Of a stretch of DNA of 64,000 nucleotides, positions 2,799 through 18,021 are shown piece by piece. The stretch lies in NCBI GenBank assembly GCA_964413735.1, contig CAYPSS010000001.1, forward strand, positions 140,679 to 204,678, written 5' to 3'. This stretch comes from an uncultured Gammaproteobacteria bacterium (GTDB lineage: Bacteria > Patescibacteriota > Patescibacteriia > UBA11705). Position 1 is the first letter of the stretch, and each line of letters starts with the position of its first letter. The position numbers and the translations under genes were made by a program. The notes below the pieces were generated by a model, which worked only from the letters and a program-made list of their open reading frames with translations, did no database searches and was not told the origin of the DNA.

Positions 2799-4553
2799 TT
2801 ATTGAGCAACACGGAAAACTTCTTCAATCGAGGTGATTCCTTGAGAGGCTTTAATTAAACCATCTTGGAGCATGGTTAACATTTGATTTTCCGTCGCCCA
2901 TTTTTCAATATCATCAGTTGATGGTGTTCCGGAAATAATATTTTTTCGCATTTGTTCATTAAGAACCATAATTTCATAGATACCAATGCGTCCTTTGTAT
3001 TTCAAATTATTGCATTTTTCACATCCTTGACCAATATAAAATTTTAAATTATCCATTTTCGGACGATCAGGATGATCAGATGGTATTTTATTTAATTCAG
3101 ATTTAATTATTTCTAATTCTTCAGGGGTTGGTTGATACTCAGTTTTGCAATTCTCACAAATACGGCGAACTAATCTTTGTCCCATAATTGTGTTAATCGC
3201 TGGCGCTAAGAAATGTCCTTTTACTCCCATATTCATTAAACGCGGAATTGCTCCGGCCGCATTATTGGTGTGAATGGTAGAAATTACTAAGTGACCGGTA
3301 AGTGCAGCATTTACCGCTACATCAGCGGTTTCCAAGTCACGAATTTCCCCCACCATAACAATATCCGGATCTTGACGTAAAATGGAGCGTAGGCCATCAG
3401 CAAAAGAGTATTTTTTGCTGTGATCAATTTGACTTTGATTGATGCCTTTTAAACGATACTCAATTGGATCTTCCAAGGTAATTATTTTTGTTCCTTCTTT
3501 GTTTAATTTATTTAGAATTGCGTACAAAGTAGTGGTTTTACCGGAGCCGGTTGGACCGGTGGTGATTATCATACCATGAGGTTTGGAGCTTTCTTTTTCC
3601 AATCGTGTTTTGGCAATGCCAAATAAACCAAGATCTTCAAATTGTAAACTGGCCGCTGATGATTTCAAAATACGCATTACCACTGATTCTCCATAAGAGG
3701 TTGGTAAGGTGGAAACACGGACATCAATTTCTTCGTCGCTTTTTAAAATAGTAAAACGACCATCTTGCGGTTTGTCATTGATGTTGATTTTCAAACCGGA
3801 AACTTGTTTGATGCGGGCGATCAATTGAGTCCAAATTTCTTTTTGCAAACTGGCTGCATCATGTAAAATACCGTCAACCCGCAAACGAATTTTCACCTCA
3901 TCTTCTTCGGTCTCAATATGAATATCAGAAGATCCAGATTGCAAAGCCGCAGCAATTATCAAAGAAGTCATTTCGGTTAAATTGGTGATTTTTTTTAATG
4001 ATTCATTTAGTTTGGTAAAGTCATTGCCCAAATTTTCATATTTTAATAAATCCTTTTCAGTAATCTCAATACCTTTGGGCGGTTTTTTGTAAACCGGAAT
4101 TTTGTCGTAAAGTTTTGCCGTTATTTCAAAGCTATGATCGGAAATTTGATATATTTCCACTTTACCGCGCATTCTTTCACCAATTTGATAAGCTAATTCC
4201 TTGATCTTTTCGTCATTGGGATTAACAGCACCAATTCTAATCTCTTGACCAACATATAAAAAGCAGATTACCTTTAGTTCTTCCGCAGTTTGACGTGGAA
4301 TAATGGCAATGGTTTCCGGGCTGATGGGAAATCCGATTAAATCAATATAAGGGAGACCTTGTTGGAAGGCTTTTTTTTGGATTTTTTGTTCTTGTTCTTG
4401 CAAACTGATATCTGTTAATTTTTGGCTTAATTTAGCGGTTGGAGATTGATCATCAGAGGCTTTGCTCGCGGTGGCTTTTGTTTTTGTGGCGGAGGTTGAC
4501 TTCAGTTGCTTCGGATCTTTCAACAAATCTTCAATTGAATTGGCAGTAACCAT
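2799..4553 (-). CDS. pilB: type II secretion / type IV pilus assembly ATPase (GspE/PilB family)
   Basis: 584 aa; Walker A GPTGSGKTTT, Walker B DPDIVMVGEIRD, C-terminal tetracysteine CENCK...CEKC, N-terminal GSPII_E_N-like domain. Confidence 0.9.
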   Translation of the reverse strand: MVTANSIEDLLKDPKQLKSTSATKTKATASKASDDQSPTAKLSQKLTDISLQEQEQKIQKKAFQQGLPYIDLIGFPISPETIAIIPRQTAEELKVICFLYVGQEIRIGAVNPNDEKIKELAYQIGERMRGKVEIYQISDHSFEITAKLYDKIPVYKKPPKGIEITEKDLLKYENLGNDFTKLNESLKKITNLTEMTSLIIAAALQSGSSDIHIETEEDEVKIRLRVDGILHDAASLQKEIWTQLIARIKQVSGLKININDKPQDGRFTILKSDEEIDVRVSTLPTSYGESVVMRILKSSAASLQFEDLGLFGIAKTRLEKESSKPHGMIITTGPTGSGKTTTLYAILNKLNKEGTKIITLEDPIEYRLKGINQSQIDHSKKYSFADGLRSILRQDPDIVMVGEIRDLETADVAVNAALTGHLVISTIHTNNAAGAIPRLMNMGVKGHFLAPAINTIMGQRLVRRICENCKTEYQPTPEELEIIKSELNKIPSDHPDRPKMDNLKFYIGQGCEKCNNLKYKGRIGIYEIMVLNEQMRKNIISGTPSTDDIEKWATENQMLTMLQDGLIKASQGITSIEEVFRVAQ

Positions 4554-4740: not shown

Positions 4741-5649
4741 ATGACAAGACGAAAGAAAACAACAGCTGAAGATTTGGGGCTTGAGGTTGAAACTGTACAA
4801 GAAAAAGCAAAAAAAACCACAAACAAAGAAGAACAAGTTTCTTTGTTTACTTTAGCGGTGGTGGCAATTGTAATTTTAGCCATTGTGGGCGTGGTTTTTG
4901 GCTATTTCCGTGATCAATTATCGGAAATTAAAAAAGAAGGCAAAGAAAATGTTGCCTTAAACAGTCAATTGGAAATTTTAAAAAAAGAAATCTCTGATTT
5001 GACCAGCAAAGCGCAAAAACTGGAATTGGAAAATATCATGAACAAGGAAATAGTTTTGAATTTATTTGATAAAAATCGTGAATTGCCCGATGAAGTTAAT
5101 TTTGAAGGTTGGTCGGTTTATAAAAATGAAGAAGCCGGTGTGCAATTAAATATTCCATCTGATTGGGAAGTGCAAAGCGCTAATAAGATTATAAATTCCG
5201 TTGAAAAAATGCCGGCATTAAGTGATGAACAAAAAAAGGAACAACCAGTTTCACCCAGTGAAAAGACATTAATATCAGAGGACGCAGATCCTCAATATCA
5301 ATTGATGCTTCAGCCGAAAAATGTGGCGGAAATGATTAAGGCCATAACTTTAAAAGATGATTATGTTGACTTATGGAAATTAAGTTTAGAAGAAAAACAG
5401 GATGTTTTTGCTAAAATAAATTTCATTGATCAACAAGAGTTTGATTTGGGAGTATTACTATATTTCATTGATATTGATGATAAGGACAATCAAATTCCTA
5501 CGGTTTTAATTTTAACCGATGATCGAATTATGCGCGCTACCTTTAATATTTTGGATCGTAATGTAAGTAATTATGTAAAGTACCGTTTGGATTTTGAAGC
5601 TTTGGTTACGGGAATAGAATTTTTGCCTGTGGCGGAAAAGACGGAATAA
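4741..5649 (+). CDS. hypothetical membrane-anchored protein (short cytoplasmic N-terminus, one TM, coiled coil, about 200-aa extracytoplasmic domain); PilN/PilO-like architecture only
   Basis: 302 aa; TM LFTLAVVAIVILAIVGVVFGYF followed by heptad-rich segment; divergent from pilB. Confidence 0.5.
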   Translation: MTRRKKTTAEDLGLEVETVQEKAKKTTNKEEQVSLFTLAVVAIVILAIVGVVFGYFRDQLSEIKKEGKENVALNSQLEILKKEISDLTSKAQKLELENIMNKEIVLNLFDKNRELPDEVNFEGWSVYKNEEAGVQLNIPSDWEVQSANKIINSVEKMPALSDEQKKEQPVSPSEKTLISEDADPQYQLMLQPKNVAEMIKAITLKDDYVDLWKLSLEEKQDVFAKINFIDQQEFDLGVLLYFIDIDDKDNQIPTVLILTDDRIMRATFNILDRNVSNYVKYRLDFEALVTGIEFLPVAEKTE

Positions 5650-9159: not shown

Positions 9160-9249
9160 TATTCCTCCGACATTTTTAATGCGTAGTTATCTTAACAAAA
9201 TCGTAACTCTTGTCAAATAAAAAAACAAGACATTGTCTTGTTTGTAGTA

Positions 9250-9759
9250 TTAGGCTTTTTGTAATTGGGCAATCAGATGTTGAACTCCCGGATGTTTTCC
9301 CTTGTTATTCGGATTTTGGATTAACAATAATTCTTCGCTGGAATTATCCTTAAGTACAGTCCGACTGTATGTAGCTACTGTTTGAGTATTCACATAGTTA
9401 ATGAAAGCGTTTAAATCTCCATTTTTAAACCAATCATCATTAGGTGTCTGGATAACAATGATTTTGGTTATTTCGACTTTTTCACTAGGGTCACGGGTTT
9501 CCTCGGAGTAGGAAACTACGACATAATAGTGAATATCAGCTTGGAGAAAAATTGGAAAGCAAACGGCAAATTCAGAGATGCGATTCCAAGAATCAGTAGT
9601 ATTTCGGGCAAATTCTATATACCATTGATTAACCAAACTTTTAACTTCTTCTTGATTGAGACCAAGAATTTTAAAGATCCAAGCGGCTTTTTCAGAGATA
9701 AATCTTAAAACCGTTTTTTGTACTGTTTGTTCATAGAGGAGTTTGATTTTTCTTTCCAT
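9250..9759 (-). CDS. hypothetical protein, paralog family A (about 169 aa; start moved to MERKIK after SD gaggtga)
   Basis: paralog of 8647..9159; promoter atttgacaaaaaatattcccctgctaagatg; track ORF begins 30 nt earlier. Confidence 0.55.
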   Translation of the reverse strand: MERKIKLLYEQTVQKTVLRFISEKAAWIFKILGLNQEEVKSLVNQWYIEFARNTTDSWNRISEFAVCFPIFLQADIHYYVVVSYSEETRDPSEKVEITKIIVIQTPNDDWFKNGDLNAFINYVNTQTVATYSRTVLKDNSSEELLLIQNPNNKGKHPGVQHLIAQLQKA

Positions 9760-9862
9760 TATCACCTCAGATTTTGAATGCGTAAGCATCTTAGCAGGGG
9801 AATATTTTTTGTCAAATAAAAAGAAGCGGTTTGAAGGCCGCTTCTTTGCGTAAAAATAAGCA

Positions 9863-11512
<1,650 letters not shown>

Positions 11513-11605
11513 TTATTGATAAAAATAGTTAATTAATTTTAATAATAAATTTAATAGTTTTTAATTATCTACACCCCCTATTTTCTAATCCCAAATCCCT
11601 AATTT

Positions 11606-11893
11606 TTACTCAATCACCGCTAAAATATCTGATTCGCTTAAAACCAAATAAGTTTGGTTATCAATTTTCACTTCATTTGGAGAGTACTTGGTGAAAACCA
11701 CTTTATCGCCGACTTTCAAATCAAGCGCAATCCTTTCTCCTTTGTCATTTAATTTTCCCGGACCAATGGCAATCACTTCACCCTTTTCCGGTTTTTCTTG
11801 GTTAACGGTGTCGGGGATAATAATACCGGATTCAGTGGTTCGTTCGTCATTTAGAGGTTTAACGATTACATGATCGTTTAAAGGTTTTAACAT
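11606..11893 (-). CDS. groES: co-chaperonin GroES (Hsp10)
   Basis: 95 aa; LKPLNDHVIVKPL... family sequence; upstream of groEL. Confidence 0.9.
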   Translation of the reverse strand: MLKPLNDHVIVKPLNDERTTESGIIIPDTVNQEKPEKGEVIAIGPGKLNDKGERIALDLKVGDKVVFTKYSPNEVKIDNQTYLVLSESDILAVIE

Positions 11894-11956
11894 ATTTAGA
11901 ACAACGAATTAACGGATGATTACAAATCAATGCTTGATTGGTAATGCCGCCATTCG

Positions 11957-11983
11957 TTAGCAGTTAAGTGTTTAGAGTGCTAA
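11957..11983. promoter_or_regulatory. CIRCE-like inverted repeat (ttagcagtt-N9-gagtgctaa), HrcA operator upstream of groES-groEL
   Basis: 7/9 + 9/9 match to TTAGCACTC-N9-GAGTGCTAA; located just downstream of a TTGACA-N16-TACAAT promoter on the minus strand. Confidence 0.7.
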
Positions 11984-12091
11984 ATTCTATACTATATTGT
12001 ATTAGATTTTTATCATATGTCAAGAGCGCTTGTCAAATGTATTTTTATAATAAATTAATGAAAAAACAGGACTTTGCCCTGTTTTGAAATA

Positions 12092-12625
12092 TTATTTTCT
12101 TTTATCTGCCAATGTACAAATAACTTGCATTCCCGTTATGATTATTTGCTTTAGACTTTGGACATAGGCACTATGATTGTATTTGCCCGTCTGAGGATTA
12201 ATTGCTTTTTTGATAGCGAGTAAATATAGACTTCGTACATCAAGAGAGCATAGCATTACCACTATTTCACGCATACTTAGAGTCATTGTTTTCGGATCAA
12301 AAGATGTACTCGATTGCTGAAAACGATGAGGCATCATGTTGGTTAAGGTTTCAACGTATTTATTGTAAGCGGTGTGATTGAAATTACCGTTTTTTGTTGC
12401 CAAATTAATACCGGCCATCATCAAAAATTGTAGCGGAGTTTCTAGGTAAAGGTTTCGAGCTGAATCTATCGTAATCCCTTGCGCTAAAATTTTTAATCCT
12501 TGTTCTGTTGCCCGATCTCGTTGGTTGAATGCTTGTTGATTGGCAAATGTTTGAATAAATCGACAGCCATAACGAGGATGTTGAGAGTCAAGGTATTCGT
12601 AAACAACATAATAAGGATTTGCCAT
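12092..12625 (-). CDS. hypothetical protein, paralog family B (about 177 aa; start at MANPYY after SD aaaggag)
   Basis: aligns with 12714..13241 product (YxVV(Y/F)EY(L/I)D..S..RGCRFI, LLAI(K/E)K(A/S)I(N/D)P(Q/D)TG); track N-terminus overlaps its own promoter. Confidence 0.55.
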   Translation of the reverse strand: MANPYYVVYEYLDSQHPRYGCRFIQTFANQQAFNQRDRATEQGLKILAQGITIDSARNLYLETPLQFLMMAGINLATKNGNFNHTAYNKYVETLTNMMPHRFQQSSTSFDPKTMTLSMREIVVMLCSLDVRSLYLLAIKKAINPQTGKYNHSAYVQSLKQIIITGMQVICTLADKRK

Positions 12626-12713
12626 GGCATCTCCTTTTGAAAGGACGTTTAAATTTATCATAATAATAAATTATTGTCAATCAAAAAAAACAGGACTTTA
12701 TCCTGTTTATTAA

Positions 12714-13241
12714 TTAAAATTCTTCTTCTGAACAGCCAAAAAATGATTTTATGCAAGTATTGATATTTCGATTATAGGCCACGTCATTAAATTCTCCGGT
12801 ATCCGGATCAATGGATTTTTCAATCGCCAGTAATACCAAACCTCTGCCATTGTCGTTCTTTTGACGAAGCGCAAGAATTTCATTTTCAGTAACTCTCATC
12901 TTGGGGTTGTGAAAAAGTTTTTGACTTTCAATAAAGCGTCGCATGAAAATCTGACGCATAAATTCAACTTTCATTTTGTAAAGTTCAAAACTGAAATTTT
13001 CTCCGTAAGTGGCATCGCCTACACAAGAACGCATCAAGCATTCCAGAGGAACTTCATTGCAGAGTTTCTGAGCCTCTGCTTCAGAAATTCCTTGAGCAAT
13101 TACTTTAATGATTCCATTCTCTTCTGATGTTTCTCGAGAATCAAAAGCTGTTTTATCGGCATAGTTGATAATAAAGCGACAGCCACGATAATCGCTTTTT
13201 GGATCAATGTATTCAAAAACAACAGAGTATTCATTTCCCAT
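12714..13241 (-). CDS. hypothetical protein, paralog family B (about 175 aa; start at MGNEYS after SD aaggaggg)
   Basis: paralog of 12092..12625; promoter TTGACA-N17-TATTAT upstream. Confidence 0.55.
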   Translation of the reverse strand: MGNEYSVVFEYIDPKSDYRGCRFIINYADKTAFDSRETSEENGIIKVIAQGISEAEAQKLCNEVPLECLMRSCVGDATYGENFSFELYKMKVEFMRQIFMRRFIESQKLFHNPKMRVTENEILALRQKNDNGRGLVLLAIEKSIDPDTGEFNDVAYNRNINTCIKSFFGCSEEEF

Positions 13242-13574
13242 TATTGCCCTCCTTGGGGTGAGAAAAAAAGAATACATTACATAATATCAATAGCAGTACG
13301 TTTTGTCAATTGTTTAGAAAAATAAAAAACAGGACGTTGTCCTGTTTGAAGTTAATCACTGAAAATCATTTCAAGAGTTTGAATGGTTAAATTTGACACA
13401 CCTGATTTTTGTAATTGGTCGCGTTTGCGGGCTAGATCAACAATTGGTTGGCAATTGAATTCTCCAGCGGATTTGTTTCTTCGGTGTTGATGATAAATGA
13501 TTAGCTGGCGTAAATATGCTTGTAGCATTTTCTTTTGTTTTTTCGTACAAAGGAAATAAATTATGAGCATTTTG

Positions 13575-14921
13575 TCATGCGCCAATAGTTGTAATATTTT
13601 TTCTGATAGATTCATTTTTTTCTCCTGTTTGAAGGAGTGAAAAAACAATGCCCAGAACAATTGCGCTCAGCATTAAACCAAAATAAAAACTATATAAATA
13701 ATGATCAAATAAATTAATTATTCCCATTGCAATAATGATGGCGATGATAAAAGGAAACGTTTGGGTGGATTCTTTTTTTTGCCAAAATTCTTTTAAGGTA
13801 TTAAATATGCCTATAAAGAAAATTATTATTGTTATTAAGCCAATAATCCCGGTTTCTATCAATGGTAATAGCCAAGCATTGTGAAGGGGTTGATATTCAT
13901 ATCCAGGACGAGAGGAATTTAATTTGAATAATCCCAGAGTGTAGTTTCCTAGACCAGTACCTGTAATGGGATATTGTAAAAAAACTCTGGTTGCCATTAC
14001 ATATGAGCCAATTCGTTCGTTGTTTGAGGACTGAGTTAGTCGATTGTTTGAATTAAACCTTTGCGACAAAGCTCCAGGCAATAAAATACTGAATAAAATA
14101 ATTACTGTAATAAAAATTAGGGTAAAGCGATGCAGGTTTTGATAATTAAAGTTAGTTTTTTTGAAAAGATAAAGAAAAATAATTGCTATAGTGAGTGCAA
14201 TAATTCCGCTACGCGAGGCAGTGGTGAGCAAGGCTAAACAATTTAGGAAAAAAGAAAAATATAAAATTTTATGATATTTTTTTTGATAAAAAACAAAGGT
14301 GATTGTGAGCAAAGTACAAAAAACTAGTAAACCAGCTAAAATATTTGGATGGGGCAGGCTCCCAAAAGCGCGTAAAATTCTTTCGCCATTATTTTCAATT
14401 ACTGGCACGCCTAAGATATCGGGTGATTGGGAGGCCATCCCTAAAAATTTGGAAGCGAAAACTTTTTGCGTTATGAATTGGTAAATAGCTAAAATTGATT
14501 GGATCAGTCCGGCGGAAAGAAAGGCGCCAATTAAATAATTAATTTTTGGTTTAATTGTTATAATAACTAAAAATAAAGCGCCGGCGGAAATTAAATGAGT
14601 GAATTTATAAAAAGCTAATTCCGGATTGATGGCGTTGACAATAGTGATTGCAAGAAGACCGATAATAAGTAGTAATTTCCAAATTGGTGATTGCCAGCCA
14701 AGTTTCTCTTTTTTAAGCCCTTTTAGGTTTTGACTAAAATAAATGATTGCGAAAATTAGAATAATTGCTAAAATAAATTGGGTGGCATAAAGGCTTTGAG
14801 TGCCATATTCCCAATTGCTACCGTTTAAGGTAGCAGGATTATAAATCCAGCGCGTTTGCCAAGGTAATAAAAAAATCAGGCTATAAAGTGAATAATGGAT
14901 AATTTTTTTTAACAGTTGCAC
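13575..14921 (-). CDS. O-antigen ligase family (Wzy_C/WaaL-like) polytopic membrane protein
   Basis: 448 aa, about 10-12 TM segments; signature HNAWLLPLIETGIIGL matches H-N-x2-L-x4-E-x-G-x2-G. Confidence 0.65.
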   Translation of the reverse strand: MQLLKKIIHYSLYSLIFLLPWQTRWIYNPATLNGSNWEYGTQSLYATQFILAIILIFAIIYFSQNLKGLKKEKLGWQSPIWKLLLIIGLLAITIVNAINPELAFYKFTHLISAGALFLVIITIKPKINYLIGAFLSAGLIQSILAIYQFITQKVFASKFLGMASQSPDILGVPVIENNGERILRAFGSLPHPNILAGLLVFCTLLTITFVFYQKKYHKILYFSFFLNCLALLTTASRSGIIALTIAIIFLYLFKKTNFNYQNLHRFTLIFITVIILFSILLPGALSQRFNSNNRLTQSSNNERIGSYVMATRVFLQYPITGTGLGNYTLGLFKLNSSRPGYEYQPLHNAWLLPLIETGIIGLITIIIFFIGIFNTLKEFWQKKESTQTFPFIIAIIIAMGIINLFDHYLYSFYFGLMLSAIVLGIVFSLLQTGEKNESIRKNITTIGA

Positions 14922-15013
14922 AATTTTTCTAATTATGATAATTTAAACCATTACTATTATATAATAGCAGTTTTTTGACAATTAAGAAAAACCCTTTAAC
15001 ATGAGGGCAAAAT

Positions 15014-15322
15014 ATGTGGACAATTGAATTGTTCCTGGGGGTAATGGTCGGAATTTTGATTTTGGGCATTGTGATTTTCCTCTATTGGTTATTAAAAGTT
15101 CGCATGATCGTTGATTTACATAAGATTGGGTTCCCGGCAAAAGTGATTATGGATCGCTGGTATTGGAAGGTGACAATTATTTATAATGGGCAGAAAATAC
15201 AACATGAATTTGGTGGCGATCATCAAACTATCAGGGTTGGCGACGCAATCTTGGATATTAATTTCTCAGATAAATTGCCCTTGAGATTTTATCGTAATTT
15301 CTCGGCATCGGAGGCACAATGA
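15014..15322 (+). CDS. small single-pass membrane protein, tandem family member 1 (102 aa)
   Basis: N-terminal TM then beta-rich domain; shares (V/I)(D/N)L..(I/V)G(F/Y)P..V..R motif with next four genes; ATGA overlap with next gene. Confidence 0.55.
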   Translation: MWTIELFLGVMVGILILGIVIFLYWLLKVRMIVDLHKIGFPAKVIMDRWYWKVTIIYNGQKIQHEFGGDHQTIRVGDAILDINFSDKLPLRFYRNFSASEAQ

Positions 15323-15717
15323 ATCTGGTCGCTGAATATTTTAATTGGGTAATTATCGGATTGCTCGGTGCGGAAAAAATGAACAAATTCAATTTTATTT
15401 TTGTTTGGTTCACTTCATTAGCTCTTTTTATTTTATTGTTGTTTTTGGCGCATGGGATGTTGGTGTTGATTCGCTATTTGTTGTTTGTAAAGTGGTTTTA
15501 TTATATTAATTTGAAATCACTTGGTTATTGTGGTCATGTGTTTGTAAATCGTATTACTCGTCGCGCTGTTTGGTGGAATGGTAGATTAAGTAAGAAAATC
15601 AAAAATCCAGAAAAACTAGATTACCAAACAATTGAATTCATGGATGTTAAAATTGTGGTCAATTTTACTCTTCGTCAGCCGGTAAAAATTTATAAAAAGG
15701 GGGTGAACGATGATTAA
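15319..15717 (+). CDS. small single-pass membrane protein, tandem family member 2 (132 aa)
   Basis: paralog of 15817..16203 (FNW(V/L)..G.LG..KM motif); translationally coupled. Confidence 0.55.
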   Translation: MNLVAEYFNWVIIGLLGAEKMNKFNFIFVWFTSLALFILLLFLAHGMLVLIRYLLFVKWFYYINLKSLGYCGHVFVNRITRRAVWWNGRLSKKIKNPEKLDYQTIEFMDVKIVVNFTLRQPVKIYKKGVNDD

Positions 15718-15820
15718 ATATTTGGTTGGGGTTGAATATATGTTTTTCCCCTGTGAGCTTGATTTTGAGAGTAAATTTCCTTTGACTTTTTATCGCTTTT
15801 GCCCGGAGGGAGAACAATGA
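15710..15820 (+). pseudogene. 36-aa internally deleted remnant of a family member (MIKYLVGV...KFPLTFYRFCPEGEQ)
   Basis: N-terminus identical in style to member 5 (MIKYLVGVG), C-terminus like member 1 (KLPLRFYRNFSASEAQ); bounded by the duplicated ATGATTAA junction and an ATGA overlap. Confidence 0.45.
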
Positions 15821-16203
15821 ACATGGCTCAGCAATTTTTCAATTGGTTAGTGACCGGCGTTTTGGGCTTTGATAAAATGACGCAATCCAGTTATGTGGTA
15901 GCTTGGTTTTTGCTGGTAGTACTTGTTGTTGTTGGTTGTTTTATAGTGGCTGTTGTTTTGCGTTTTGTTTTTATTGATTTATTTTATGTGAATTTGAATC
16001 GTGTTGGTTATCCCGGTCGAGTGTTGATTGATCGACGGCGTCGACGTGGTATTGCTTGGTTCGGGAAAGTTGTTGTTTATGTAAAAAATGAAGAAAAAGA
16101 TTTGGTCCGAATTATTCCGCTTTTTGCCGGGACAAAAATCAAAATCAGCTTTAATAATCGTTATCCTGTAAAGCTTTTAACTCCGGAGGATCGTGATGAT
16201 TAA
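15817..16203 (+). CDS. small single-pass membrane protein, tandem family member 4 (128 aa; start MNMAQQ after SD ggaggga)
   Basis: paralog of 15319..15717; track ORF starts 18 nt earlier inside the SD. Confidence 0.55.
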   Translation: MNMAQQFFNWLVTGVLGFDKMTQSSYVVAWFLLVVLVVVGCFIVAVVLRFVFIDLFYVNLNRVGYPGRVLIDRRRRRGIAWFGKVVVYVKNEEKDLVRIIPLFAGTKIKISFNNRYPVKLLTPEDRDD

Positions 16204-16513
16204 GTACTTGGTTGGTGTCGGATTGTTACTTTTTCTGCTGGGTGGTTGGGTTTATTTGAGGAAATCAAAGAAGTATTATTTGAAAGTTGATTTAAAGCCT
16301 TTTGGTTTAAGCGGTTATGCCAATATTGATCGCACGAAAAAGCAAGTTCTTTTTGTTGTTGGTGAGCAAACACGGCGATATTTTAATGTTGAGGGTAGTC
16401 GAATAATTAAAATTGATCACGTGGAGTTATTGGTGAATTTAGATGTTGATCCGCCGATTAAAGTTTTGCCCGTTTCTCGGCCAACGGTTAATATGCGCGC
16501 AACAAAAAAGTAA
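16196..16513 (+). CDS. small single-pass membrane protein, tandem family member 5 (105 aa)
   Basis: ATG within the conserved gtgATGATTAAgtac junction, overlapping the upstream stop by 8 nt. Confidence 0.55.
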   Translation: MIKYLVGVGLLLFLLGGWVYLRKSKKYYLKVDLKPFGLSGYANIDRTKKQVLFVVGEQTRRYFNVEGSRIIKIDHVELLVNLDVDPPIKVLPVSRPTVNMRATKK

Positions 16514-16589
16514 TTTAACACAGGGAACCCCCTGTGTTTTTTAATACTTAGGCTATTGACAAAATTAAAATATCTGTTAAAATAATATA

Positions 16590-17186
16590 TTGCCCTTTCA
16601 CAATGAGGCAGAAATGGATTTGCTCTGGATTTTGATTGGCATTTTTTTGCTTGGTTTAATTGTTAGTAATCGAAAATCGATTAAACTAGCGATTTTAAGA
16701 ATGAGCGGTGAAGTGGTATTTGTGAATATCAGGCAATCTGATCCGCCCTATCTTTTGACCAATCGTGAAACTCATGAAGTAACTATTAAGCGAGAACAAT
16801 TTGTTTATGACCCCAACAAGTTCAAGGCTTTGAATTTGGCTGATTTCGAACTTTTTGACTTGGAATGTGAGGTTACAGTTCATAATTTTGACATGTCAGA
16901 AAAACATATTTTAAAGGTTCAAACATTGTGGGGGGTTGATTTTACGCCGAAAAATTTGGAGAAATTGCGAAAAGCATTTGTAATGCCCGATAAAGCGACT
17001 TATTCCAATTATTTAAATAATTTGGCAAATGCAATTGTTTTTAAGGTGGTTATGGACTTGGGTTTTGCTCCGCTACGAGATAATCGAACCGGAGAATACA
17101 TTGAATCAGCGAAAAAAATGTTGAATGAATATGCGGAAAGCGCGGGATTCAATATCCATGACTTGAGAATTTCTCAAGTATTATAA
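16590..17186 (+). CDS. hypothetical membrane-anchored protein (N-terminal TM, about 170-aa soluble domain)
   Basis: 198-aa ORF directly after the small-TM array; terminator ccgtcaaattatgacgg+T7 follows; start may be at the internal MDLLWIL. Confidence 0.5.
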   Translation: MPFHNEAEMDLLWILIGIFLLGLIVSNRKSIKLAILRMSGEVVFVNIRQSDPPYLLTNRETHEVTIKREQFVYDPNKFKALNLADFELFDLECEVTVHNFDMSEKHILKVQTLWGVDFTPKNLEKLRKAFVMPDKATYSNYLNNLANAIVFKVVMDLGFAPLRDNRTGEYIESAKKMLNEYAESAGFNIHDLRISQVL

Positions 17187-17288
17187 ATAATACCGTCATA
17201 ATTTGACGGTTTTTTTATCTGAATATCTTGACAAAGTTATTTGTTGAAGATAAAATATTAAATTCCCTTTGACCTATCGAGGTGATCT

Positions 17289-17600
17289 ATGAATAGGGTA
17301 AAAAAGATTATTCCTTTTTTGAAAGGAGAAACTCCTCTCCAAGCAATTGAACGGTTGAAACAATTCAAATGTCGTTTTTGTAACATCGCGGAGATCCAGC
17401 AATTTTGGCAGGATAATTTGCTTGAATGTAGTCATTATAGAGCAATTGTTTGCCTCCAAGAAGAAAGTTCTTTTTTTAATCAGGTTGCTTGTACGTGGTG
17501 TGGTGGGGAATTAAATCTTAAGAATATTTATATTGAATTTTCCAGTGTTGTTGATGAAAGATATGGAATTTTGGTTGAGGTTGATCCTTGGTTGTTGTAA
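17289..17600 (+). CDS. small Cys-rich protein, paralog family C (103 aa; CxxC...C...C...CxWCG)
   Basis: own promoter cttgacaaag...gataaaat, SD cgaggtga; terminator aaagccgcttaaatcagcggttttttt; paralogous to 17704..18021. Confidence 0.55.
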   Translation: MNRVKKIIPFLKGETPLQAIERLKQFKCRFCNIAEIQQFWQDNLLECSHYRAIVCLQEESSFFNQVACTWCGGELNLKNIYIEFSSVVDERYGILVEVDPWLL

Positions 17601-17703: not shown

Positions 17704-18021
17704 GTGGCAAAGGTGAAAAAAATTGTTCGTTTTTTGGAAGAAGAAAATCCTCGACAAGCAGTTGAACGTTTGAAGCAATCAGGGTGTCGTTTGTGTACTA
17801 TTTCTGAAATTTTTGCATATTGGAAAGAATGTCGATTGGAGTGCAGTCGTTATGCAGCCATTGTTTGTCTTCATGAAGAGAGCTTTTTTGGTGATAATGT
17901 TTTTTGTTCTTGGTGTGGTTGGGGTAATTGGCAAAGTAATAACATTTACACTCAGTTTTCTCCTAACGTAGATAATAAACATGGAATCTTGGTTGAAGTT
18001 GAGGAACAAAATACACATTGA
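17704..18021 (+). CDS. small Cys-rich protein, paralog family C (105 aa; GTG start)
   Basis: MAKVKKIVRFLEE... aligns with MNRVKKIIPFLKGE...; conserved promoter/5'UTR; terminator ggccactaaatcagtggtcttttt. Confidence 0.5.
   Translation: MAKVKKIVRFLEEENPRQAVERLKQSGCRLCTISEIFAYWKECRLECSRYAAIVCLHEESFFGDNVFCSWCGWGNWQSNNIYTQFSPNVDNKHGILVEVEEQNTH

Follow-up and report, generated by a model that had tools for sequence, protein, structure and literature searches.

The window analyzed here, a stretch of 64,000 nucleotides from contig CAYPSS010000001.1 (assembly GCA_964413735.1, an uncultured bacterium placed within the Patescibacteriota), carries an array of five overlapping open reading frames (ORFs) on the forward strand, from position 15014 to position 16513. 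We assign a probability of about 0.55 to the following explanation taken as a whole: the array is a single operon coding for a family of bitopic membrane proteins with two subtypes (A and B), it includes one unit derived from an unequal crossover, its genes are translated by coupling, and its products would assemble in N-out/C-in orientation into an A/B hetero-oligomer. Our best guess for the nature of the array is a membrane-anchored, stoichiometric assembly of the two subtypes.

The first gene, A1 (15014..15322, 102 aa), belongs to subtype A and has an N-terminal transmembrane (TM) segment followed by a basic beta domain of ~75 aa. Downstream lie B1 (15319..15717, 132 aa), of subtype B, in which a conserved N-terminal helix precedes the TM segment and the beta domain; a hybrid ORF or remnant of 36 codons (15710..15820), made of an A2-type start fused to an A1-type end; a second subtype B gene, B2 (15817..16203, 128 aa); and A2 (16196..16513, 105 aa), again of subtype A, with an RKSKK cluster directly after the TM segment. 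A preliminary description of the region had listed four intact genes and a 36-aa ORF, with coordinates that the ORF list and the raw sequence bear out. Direct reading of the sequence also confirmed the overlaps on which its claim of translational coupling was based: those from A to B are ATGA (15319-15322 and 15817-15820) and those from B to A are 8 nt long, ATGATTAA (15710-15717 and 16196-16203). Each start in the array has a purine-rich, Shine-Dalgarno (SD)-like element inside the preceding gene, and an SD, GAGGG, lies upstream of A1; listed along the array, the elements are GAGGG, GGAGG (that of B1), GGGGGTG, GGAGGGAG and GGAGGA. A promoter-like site (14975..15002, + strand; TTGACA-16-TAACAT, 10/12, a consensus match only) sits in the 92-bp divergent spacer common to A1 and a Wzy_C gene, and an intrinsic terminator (16517..16545, + strand), with a 9-bp stem containing 5 GC pairs (16517-16538) and then a T-run, ends the operon. 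Since one promoter-like site and one terminator bound the array, we consider it a single operon. RNA folding of the four gene junctions gave no significant structure that would enforce coupling, and the B2 initiation region was unusually unstructured (z=+1.9).

Judged by BLASTP, the array members are true paralogs (B1/B2, E=6e-26 and 34% identity; A1/B1, 1e-8; A2/B1, 4e-7). The two subtypes alternate strictly, A being short and B carrying a conserved 22-residue N-terminal extension, MNxxx(E/Q)(Y/F)FNWxxxxLxGxxxM, which forms a moderately hydrophobic helix. Their alignment has a core of roughly [VI][DN]Lxxx-G[FYL]x[GA]-x-h-x-h-[DN]R plus a conserved Gly and an invariant C-terminal Pro, with the [VI][DN]L strand immediately C-terminal to the TM segment in the aligned members. 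The shared core first proposed, (V/I)(D/N)L..(I/V)G(F/Y)P..V..R, is present, with small deviations from the motif as written. Of the five small membrane paralogs originally counted, four have a TM segment, but the 36-aa ORF has no credible one (best 19-residue hydropathy, 0.85). An AlphaFold2 (AF2) model of B2 built on the family alignment, with a mean predicted local distance difference test (pLDDT) score of 77, contains a helix at residues 3-16, the TM helix at 23-54 and seven beta strands at 55-121, which begin directly after the TM helix.

According to the positive-inside rule, the basic flank of a TM segment stays cytoplasmic. We counted the K and R residues in the TM flanks, applying the rule by hand. 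In the A1 orthologs, 0 K/R precede the hydrophobic segment and 2-3 closely follow it, the A2 orthologs have 1 before and 5-6 after (RKSKK, RWLKK), and the B types have 1-2 before and 2-3 after; all C-terminal domains are basic (isoelectric point 9.4-10.3, net charge +3 to +10). These counts predict an N-out/C-in topology, with the beta domains on the cytoplasmic face of the membrane, against which they would sit, as the TM helix leads straight into the first strand. Beta domains predicted to be cytoplasmic argue against a surface-exposed module.

The array was compared with 11 relative contigs from independent assemblies with 11 distinct sample accessions (ENA for L010, Logan for L001-L009 and L011; a single contig underlies both L001 and L007). 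All of them (5/11 are cut before the A2 end or before A1) showed three genes, A1-B-A2, with a single junction and the same 4-nt and 8-nt overlaps, and A1 orthologs were present in L001-L011. Clade 1 (L001-L009) had 88-98% DNA identity to the window, while in clade 2 (L010 and L011) the DNA identity was 67-82% and the B protein was 61-67% identical to B1; B1 was 96% identical to the protein P0002 of the relatives. Compared with clade 1, the ratio of nonsynonymous to synonymous changes (pN/pS) was 0.52 for A1, ~0.4 for B1 and ~0.2 for A2, and most of the A1 changes fell in a swapped N-terminal TM segment. Across the two clades, the B1 orthologs had a synonymous divergence (dS) of 0.65-0.76 and a nonsynonymous divergence (dN) of 0.20-0.23. 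Clades that differ by dS values of 0.65-1.66 have kept the three orthologous groups (A1, B and A2) and the two types of overlap. Given that the three groups and the overlaps persist at near-saturated synonymous sites, A1, B and A2 would not be redundant. From these comparisons, A1, B1 and A2 are real genes under purifying selection.

The same comparisons revealed some local differences. In A1, codons 1-33 (15014..15110) encode a TM segment, MWTIELFLGVMVGILILGIV..., that is replaced by MSLLVGFVLGSIVIFVVLVIG... in the L001 group, the remainder being near-identical; this 5' replacement looks like recombination or a cassette-like swap at the 5' end of the operon. Along 9215..17600, the DNA identity to L001, L002 and L008 dropped from ~98% in the flanks to 88-94% across an island that extends from GroEL to the array, and the steps in identity coincide with the array itself, a pattern suggestive of mosaic recombination among strains. 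The clade-2 B proteins (L010, 456..902; L011, 1231..1677) have a 16-residue insertion, NLRNDVSSRLASGLVS, between the TM segment and the beta domain, so the length of this linker is not constrained.

The window aligns to the relatives up to 15732 and resumes at 16195. The extra unit (15710..16195, 486 bp) consists of the hybrid ORF and B2 and is bracketed by a junction repeat. Copy 1 of this repeat (15709..15737, + strand; GATGATTAA...) is the overlap of the B stop and the A start, and copy 2 (16195..16223, + strand), 486 nt downstream, is 83% identical to it. The junction GATGATTAAATATTTGGTTGG, found at 15709, recurs at 16195 with 2 mismatches (21 nt), and the repeat extends to 29 nt at that 83% identity. 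The window contains no further occurrence of it, with 0 matches expected by chance, so that the recurrence first noticed at 15710 and 16196 holds. As a check on the junction repeats, the independent assemblies gave a mixed outcome, since each of the eleven contigs has a single junction and the second was missing from all of them. The single junction of the relatives is like copy 1 at the first (5') variable position and like copy 2 thereafter, a pattern compatible with a repeat-mediated deletion of the extra unit, although no proof of it. To date, the five-ORF form has been seen in this genome alone and represents a strain-level indel bounded by the repeat.

The composition of the hybrid ORF bears on how this unit arose. 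Its first ~16 codons align to an A2-type 5' end and its last ~20, which include the CAATGA overlapping the next B gene, to an A1-type 3' end; the joint falls at ~15757-15760 (for example, TATATGTTTTTCCCCTGTGAGCTTGATTTTGAG), with no unassigned sequence between the two parts. The alignment thus confirmed what had been described as the fusion of an N terminus resembling that of the fifth member (A2) with a C terminus like that of A1. On these alignments, the hybrid make-up is what would be expected if A2 and A1 had undergone an unequal crossover, and we favored this mechanism because the two ends of the remnant are not both accounted for by a simple unit, whether [B+A] or [A+B]. The earlier proposal, a duplication of the second member plus the following gene, was right in that a unit was tandemly duplicated with its junction preserved, but the A2/A1 hybrid fits an unequal crossover instead. 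The hybrid may have been truncated at birth by illegitimate breakpoints, or a full-length hybrid may have been shortened by one clean in-frame deletion; the collapse of a full copy, as initially assumed, is possible but optional, given that the crossover joint explains the structure of the remnant. The ORF is probably translated, since its initiation region, GGGGGTGAACGATGATTAAATA, is near-identical to the one driving A2 in the relatives. It was not called as a gene in a collection of 15 billion proteins. It carries the SD for B2 and overlaps this gene by ATGA. We considered the possibility that the remnant is needed to unmask the ribosome-binding site (RBS) of B2 and dropped it, as no significant RNA structure was found at the four junctions; for this reason, and because the B2 start is open, we do not claim that the remnant is required for B2 expression.

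B2 was 35-37% identical to every B1 ortholog, that is, equidistant from all of them, and was found in this genome only, with no other record among 15 billion proteins. Between B1 and B2, dS was 1.05 and dN was 0.62. Given an identity of 35-37% to all B1 proteins and a dS of ~1.05 versus 0.65-0.76 (values near saturation, a point that we weigh below), B2 is by sequence an old paralog or an import and no recent copy.

We propose that the base state was A1-B-A2, as in all sampled relatives, and that the 5' end of A2 and the 3' end of A1 would have undergone an unequal crossover, generating A1-B1-[A2 start::A1 end]-B2-A2, the 36-codon ORF being the crossover joint. The junction repeat of ~20 nt would now bracket a 486-bp presence/absence polymorphism, which would have originated most simply by repeat-mediated deletion in other lineages and, less simply, by the unit having been recombined in. 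Ribosomes would translate the array as a coupled train, giving fixed A:B ratios. The short N termini would insert N-out/C-in and place the basic seven-stranded beta domains at the cytoplasmic face, where they would co-assemble into an A/B hetero-oligomer. The hybrid ORF probably plays no role beyond keeping the B2 RBS and the ATGA overlap in place. A hetero-oligomer of fixed stoichiometry fits because the alternating subtypes are not redundant, the overlaps are conserved and there is a single promoter and a single terminator.

Several points weigh against this explanation. No homolog points to a function for the family, and the hetero-oligomer is only inferred. The charge count was made by hand and carries less weight for subtype B (N-flank +1 to +2, C-flank +2 to +3), and, with its open start region, B2 may need no coupling. 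As regards the extra unit, the five-ORF form is known from one assembly only, and the indel may be either a loss in the relatives or a gain in the window. The chimeric look of the junction in the relatives rests on few variable positions, the dS values used to date B2 are near saturation, and the openness of the hybrid frame is not significant (P was ~0.05 with 36 random codons and 0.31 with shuffling restricted to the middle).

No known family emerged from the searches. No member or ortholog had a meaningful match in Pfam, NCBIfam, PHROGs or PADLOC (in PHROGs only noise, E>=0.06; in PADLOC none), and a sequence profile search of the PDB with the family gave 0 matches at E<=10. An exhaustive HMMER profile search of 1.84e9 cluster representatives returned 4 matches, all from the family itself, and the family profile recovered all three orthologous groups (A1, B and A2) at E<=2e-13 among these 1.84e9 proteins. 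Word-indexed searches of 5.8e9 proteins, using B2 alone or the alignment of the four paralogs, found the same lineage only. With Foldseek, nothing below E=0.3 was obtained in PDB and BFVD. There were no tblastn matches in phages and plasmids and none in IMG/VR, and neither relatives nor distant synteny emerged from the GTDB species genomes, for which B1 and the Wzy_C protein served as queries. A scan of JGI metagenomes with a degenerate junction pattern produced at least 120 matches, all attributable to chance, as tblastn detected no family member encoded at any of those listed. The literature search found no described counterpart of the array family. The family had been called unrecognised and lineage-specific in the preliminary description, and both terms are borne out: no characterised family was assigned by Pfam, NCBIfam, PHROGs, PADLOC or PDB, and the 1.84e9 representatives yielded only self matches. 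As far as these searches reach, the family occurs only in one narrow low-GC lineage.

We also compared the array proteins with specific families of similar architecture. Type IV pilins and pseudopilins have a class III signal peptide, i.e., a short basic leader, a Gly at -1 and a hydrophobic helix with a Glu at +5. The array proteins lack it: the B-type start is LG-A/F-E/D-K/E-M, with an acidic residue at +2 and a hydrophobic leader, and N_methyl (PF07963) gave no match in the members at E<=1 to 10. The pilin-like 'WTIEL' start of A1 (MWTIE...) was rejected, since the Glu is missing in the A1 orthologs (MSLLVGF, MGLFLGF). The pilin fold, a long N-terminal helix on an antiparallel sheet of 4-5 strands, was not found in the family either. 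For the Tad pseudopilin TadE (PF07811), there was no Pfam match and the G/xxxxEY processing site is missing from the sequences. The array proteins do not show the features of PilZ (PF07238; RxxxR followed 20-30 residues on by D/NxSxxG, in a six-strand barrel) or the C-terminal five-strand OB-fold domain of NfeD (PF01957), and YajC (PF02699) was discarded, with no Pfam or NCBIfam match. Known anti-phage defence and phage families were set aside on the same basis (no PADLOC, PHROG, phage, plasmid, IMG/VR or BFVD match), and the components of Pam pili, with a cleaved Sec signal peptide, Ig-like donor-strand-exchange domain(s) and a C-terminal TM segment in the chaperones and the anchor, were compared by description only and differ from the array proteins in size, signal peptide and TM position.

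The Wzy_C gene (13575..14921, - strand, 448 aa), a member of the O-antigen ligase/polymerase superfamily (PF04932, E=7e-18), is divergently transcribed 92 bp upstream of the array. In NCBIfam, all matches of its product were far below the cut-offs (TfpM-like, 41 bits versus a 600-bit cut-off). Its linkage to the array was seen only in genomes too close for synteny to inform. On the other side of the array, a monocistronic unit (16556..17216, + strand) encodes a TM-anchored orphan of 190 aa (coding sequence 16614..17186), with its own promoter-like site (16556-16583, + strand, 11/12) and terminator (17192-17210, + strand). A TTG at 16590 had been taken as its start, for which ATG 16614 is more likely (190 aa, as called in the relatives). 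This gene had a pN/pS ratio of 0.2-0.3 versus clade 1, and its product showed no profile similarity to the array family (hhalign probability, 0.2%), matched the same lineage only in the word-indexed search and gave no Pfam Band_7 match and no relevant sequence match in PDB. Its AF2 model was unusable (pLDDT, 40). The protein ends in GFNIHDLRISQV, and the order of strands and helices in this low-confidence model is loosely SPFH-like. A pairing of SPFH and NfeD that would include this neighbor finds no support in Pfam, and a model with a pLDDT of 40 is too poor for a fold search.

These neighbors had led to the suggestion of an envelope or surface module, which is not supported: the beta domains are predicted to be cytoplasmic, the 190-aa gene is unrelated and has its own promoter and terminator, and the Wzy_C gene is divergent. 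A version of this idea, in which the array proteins would be N-in/C-out, signal-anchored surface proteins forming an envelope module with the Wzy_C-like enzyme and the 190-aa protein (for example, as substrates or partners of an O-oligosaccharyltransferase, in the way that pilin genes adjoin tfpO or tfpM), seems unlikely, although it is the first of the alternatives. Both in the window and in all the relative contigs that extend to it, a divergent Wzy_C gene adjoins the array, but the relatives are too close for informative synteny, and the weak TfpM-like match (41 bits) is far below its cut-off of 600 bits. The region is the most variable of the locus (88-94% versus 98% in the flanks), which is common for surface functions, and the flank charges of the B subtype are not decisive; against this, the A1 orthologs have no K/R before the TM segment and 2-3 after it, the RKSKK of A2 after it is a pattern that blocks export, the array proteins have no conserved Cys pairs, and the 190-aa gene is a separate transcription unit unrelated to the family. 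Somewhat less probable still is that the array consists of divergent members of a known family of small membrane proteins missed by sequence, such as type IV or Tad pseudopilins, NfeD-like SPFH partners, PilZ or YajC. The architecture is similar (an N-terminal TM segment, a small beta domain and tandem coupled genes), and the GFNIHDLRISQV end of the 190-aa neighbor resembles, by eye, the last strand of SPFH domains, following a predicted order of strands, three helices and a final strand (low confidence, pLDDT 40).

More speculative, and to be held with little confidence, is the idea that A and B constitute an unseen fold family that builds a lineage-specific membrane device, for example a cytoplasmic platform formed by a hetero-oligomer or, should the predicted topology be wrong, a surface array, which would work with the Wzy_C-like glycan enzyme of an ultra-small, probably symbiotic bacterium and would be tuned by variation in subunit number at the junction repeat. 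Finally, we consider it very improbable that the array is decaying or non-functional orphan sequence or that assembly error created the extra A'-B2 unit. In favor of this reading, the family has very few members, a single assembly contains B2 and the remnant, and the open frame of the remnant is compatible with chance. However, pN/pS is below 1 for A1, B1 and A2; clades with near-saturated dS share the gene order, the overlaps and the SDs; and B2 keeps the whole set of B-type motifs and has a confident fold model. A false join needs common k-mers, but the junction copies share only exact runs of 8-9 nt and the joint within the remnant is unique sequence, so an artefact is unlikely.

The surroundings contain other tandem orphans. 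Two paralogs of 189 and 187 aa (12092..12661 and 12714..13277, both - strand; 33% identical), with no Pfam, NCBIfam, PHROG or PADLOC match, vary in copy number among strains (L008 has only one). Two Cys-rich paralogs of 103 and 105 aa (17289..17600 and 17704..18021, both + strand; 54% identical), with at least 4 invariant Cys, are possibly zinc-ribbon-like, have no family match and are present in one or two copies in the relatives (one in L002 and L008). A YidC gene lies ~4 kb from the array in the window, and a T2SSE/PilB-type ATPase gene (2799..4553, - strand) adjoins one for a protein of 302 aa (4741..5649) with weak PsbP_2-like and DUF6377 matches. In the first 20 kb, no Pfam domain was assigned to about half of the proteins examined; the window has, from 1 to 64000, no tRNA genes and no Rfam match. 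A GC content of 35%, the abundance of orphan genes and the small size of the source contig (318.7 kb) would point to a genome resembling those of the candidate phyla radiation (CPR).

As it stands, the array opens no long-standing question. It adds one protein family with no sequence or fold relatives to the large "dark" membrane proteome of putatively CPR-like bacteria, in which structural studies have lately revealed new machines among comparable unknowns, for example, Pam pili. If our explanation is true, it would also be a clean worked example of the gain and loss of orphan membrane protein genes in small-genome bacteria, in which an unequal crossover between flanking paralogs gives rise to a unit, an overlapping stop/start junction serves as the recombination substrate and the joint survives as a short ORF in which the translation signals of the following gene are maintained.

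The closest known systems by gene layout and protein size are the operons of pseudopilins and minor pilins (ComGC-GG, GspG-K and TadE/F), which, like the array, encode paralogs of 100-150 aa with an N-terminal hydrophobic helix and a small beta-rich domain, arranged head to tail with overlapping start and stop codons; their products assemble into one hetero-oligomer. NfeD-type proteins (YuaF/YqeZ-like), paired with SPFH/flotillin genes, likewise have an N-terminal anchor and an all-beta cytoplasmic domain of 60-80 aa, and their genes lie, as here, directly upstream of one for another TM-anchored alpha/beta protein. YajC, the accessory subunit of SecDF-YajC-YidC, also has a single N-terminal TM segment, an N-out/C-in topology, a small cytoplasmic beta-rich domain and ~110 aa, but it is single-copy and universal, whereas the array is lineage-specific and alternating and has no Pfam YajC match. 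The Pam pili of CPR bacteria are made of the pilins PamA/B and the chaperones PamC/D, two-domain proteins of 38-55 kDa with cleaved N-terminal signal peptides and anchors, where present, that are C-terminal TM helices (bioRxiv 10.64898/2026.03.03.709456). Both systems have beta-sandwich proteins that are hard to detect by sequence and several paralogs per operon, and the array would share the CPR origin, but the array proteins, of 11-15 kDa and with an uncleaved N-terminal TM segment, are set apart by description. As for the proposed mechanism, an unequal crossover with a hybrid joint and a repeat-bounded indel is classical and amounts to ordinary tandem gene gain and loss. Classical amplification by unequal crossover likewise leaves a duplicated unit and a hybrid joint ORF, followed by loss or gain mediated by direct repeats. 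The array differs in that its joint is an in-frame stub of 36 codons preserving both overlapping initiation contexts and in that the duplicated copies have diverged to 35% protein identity.

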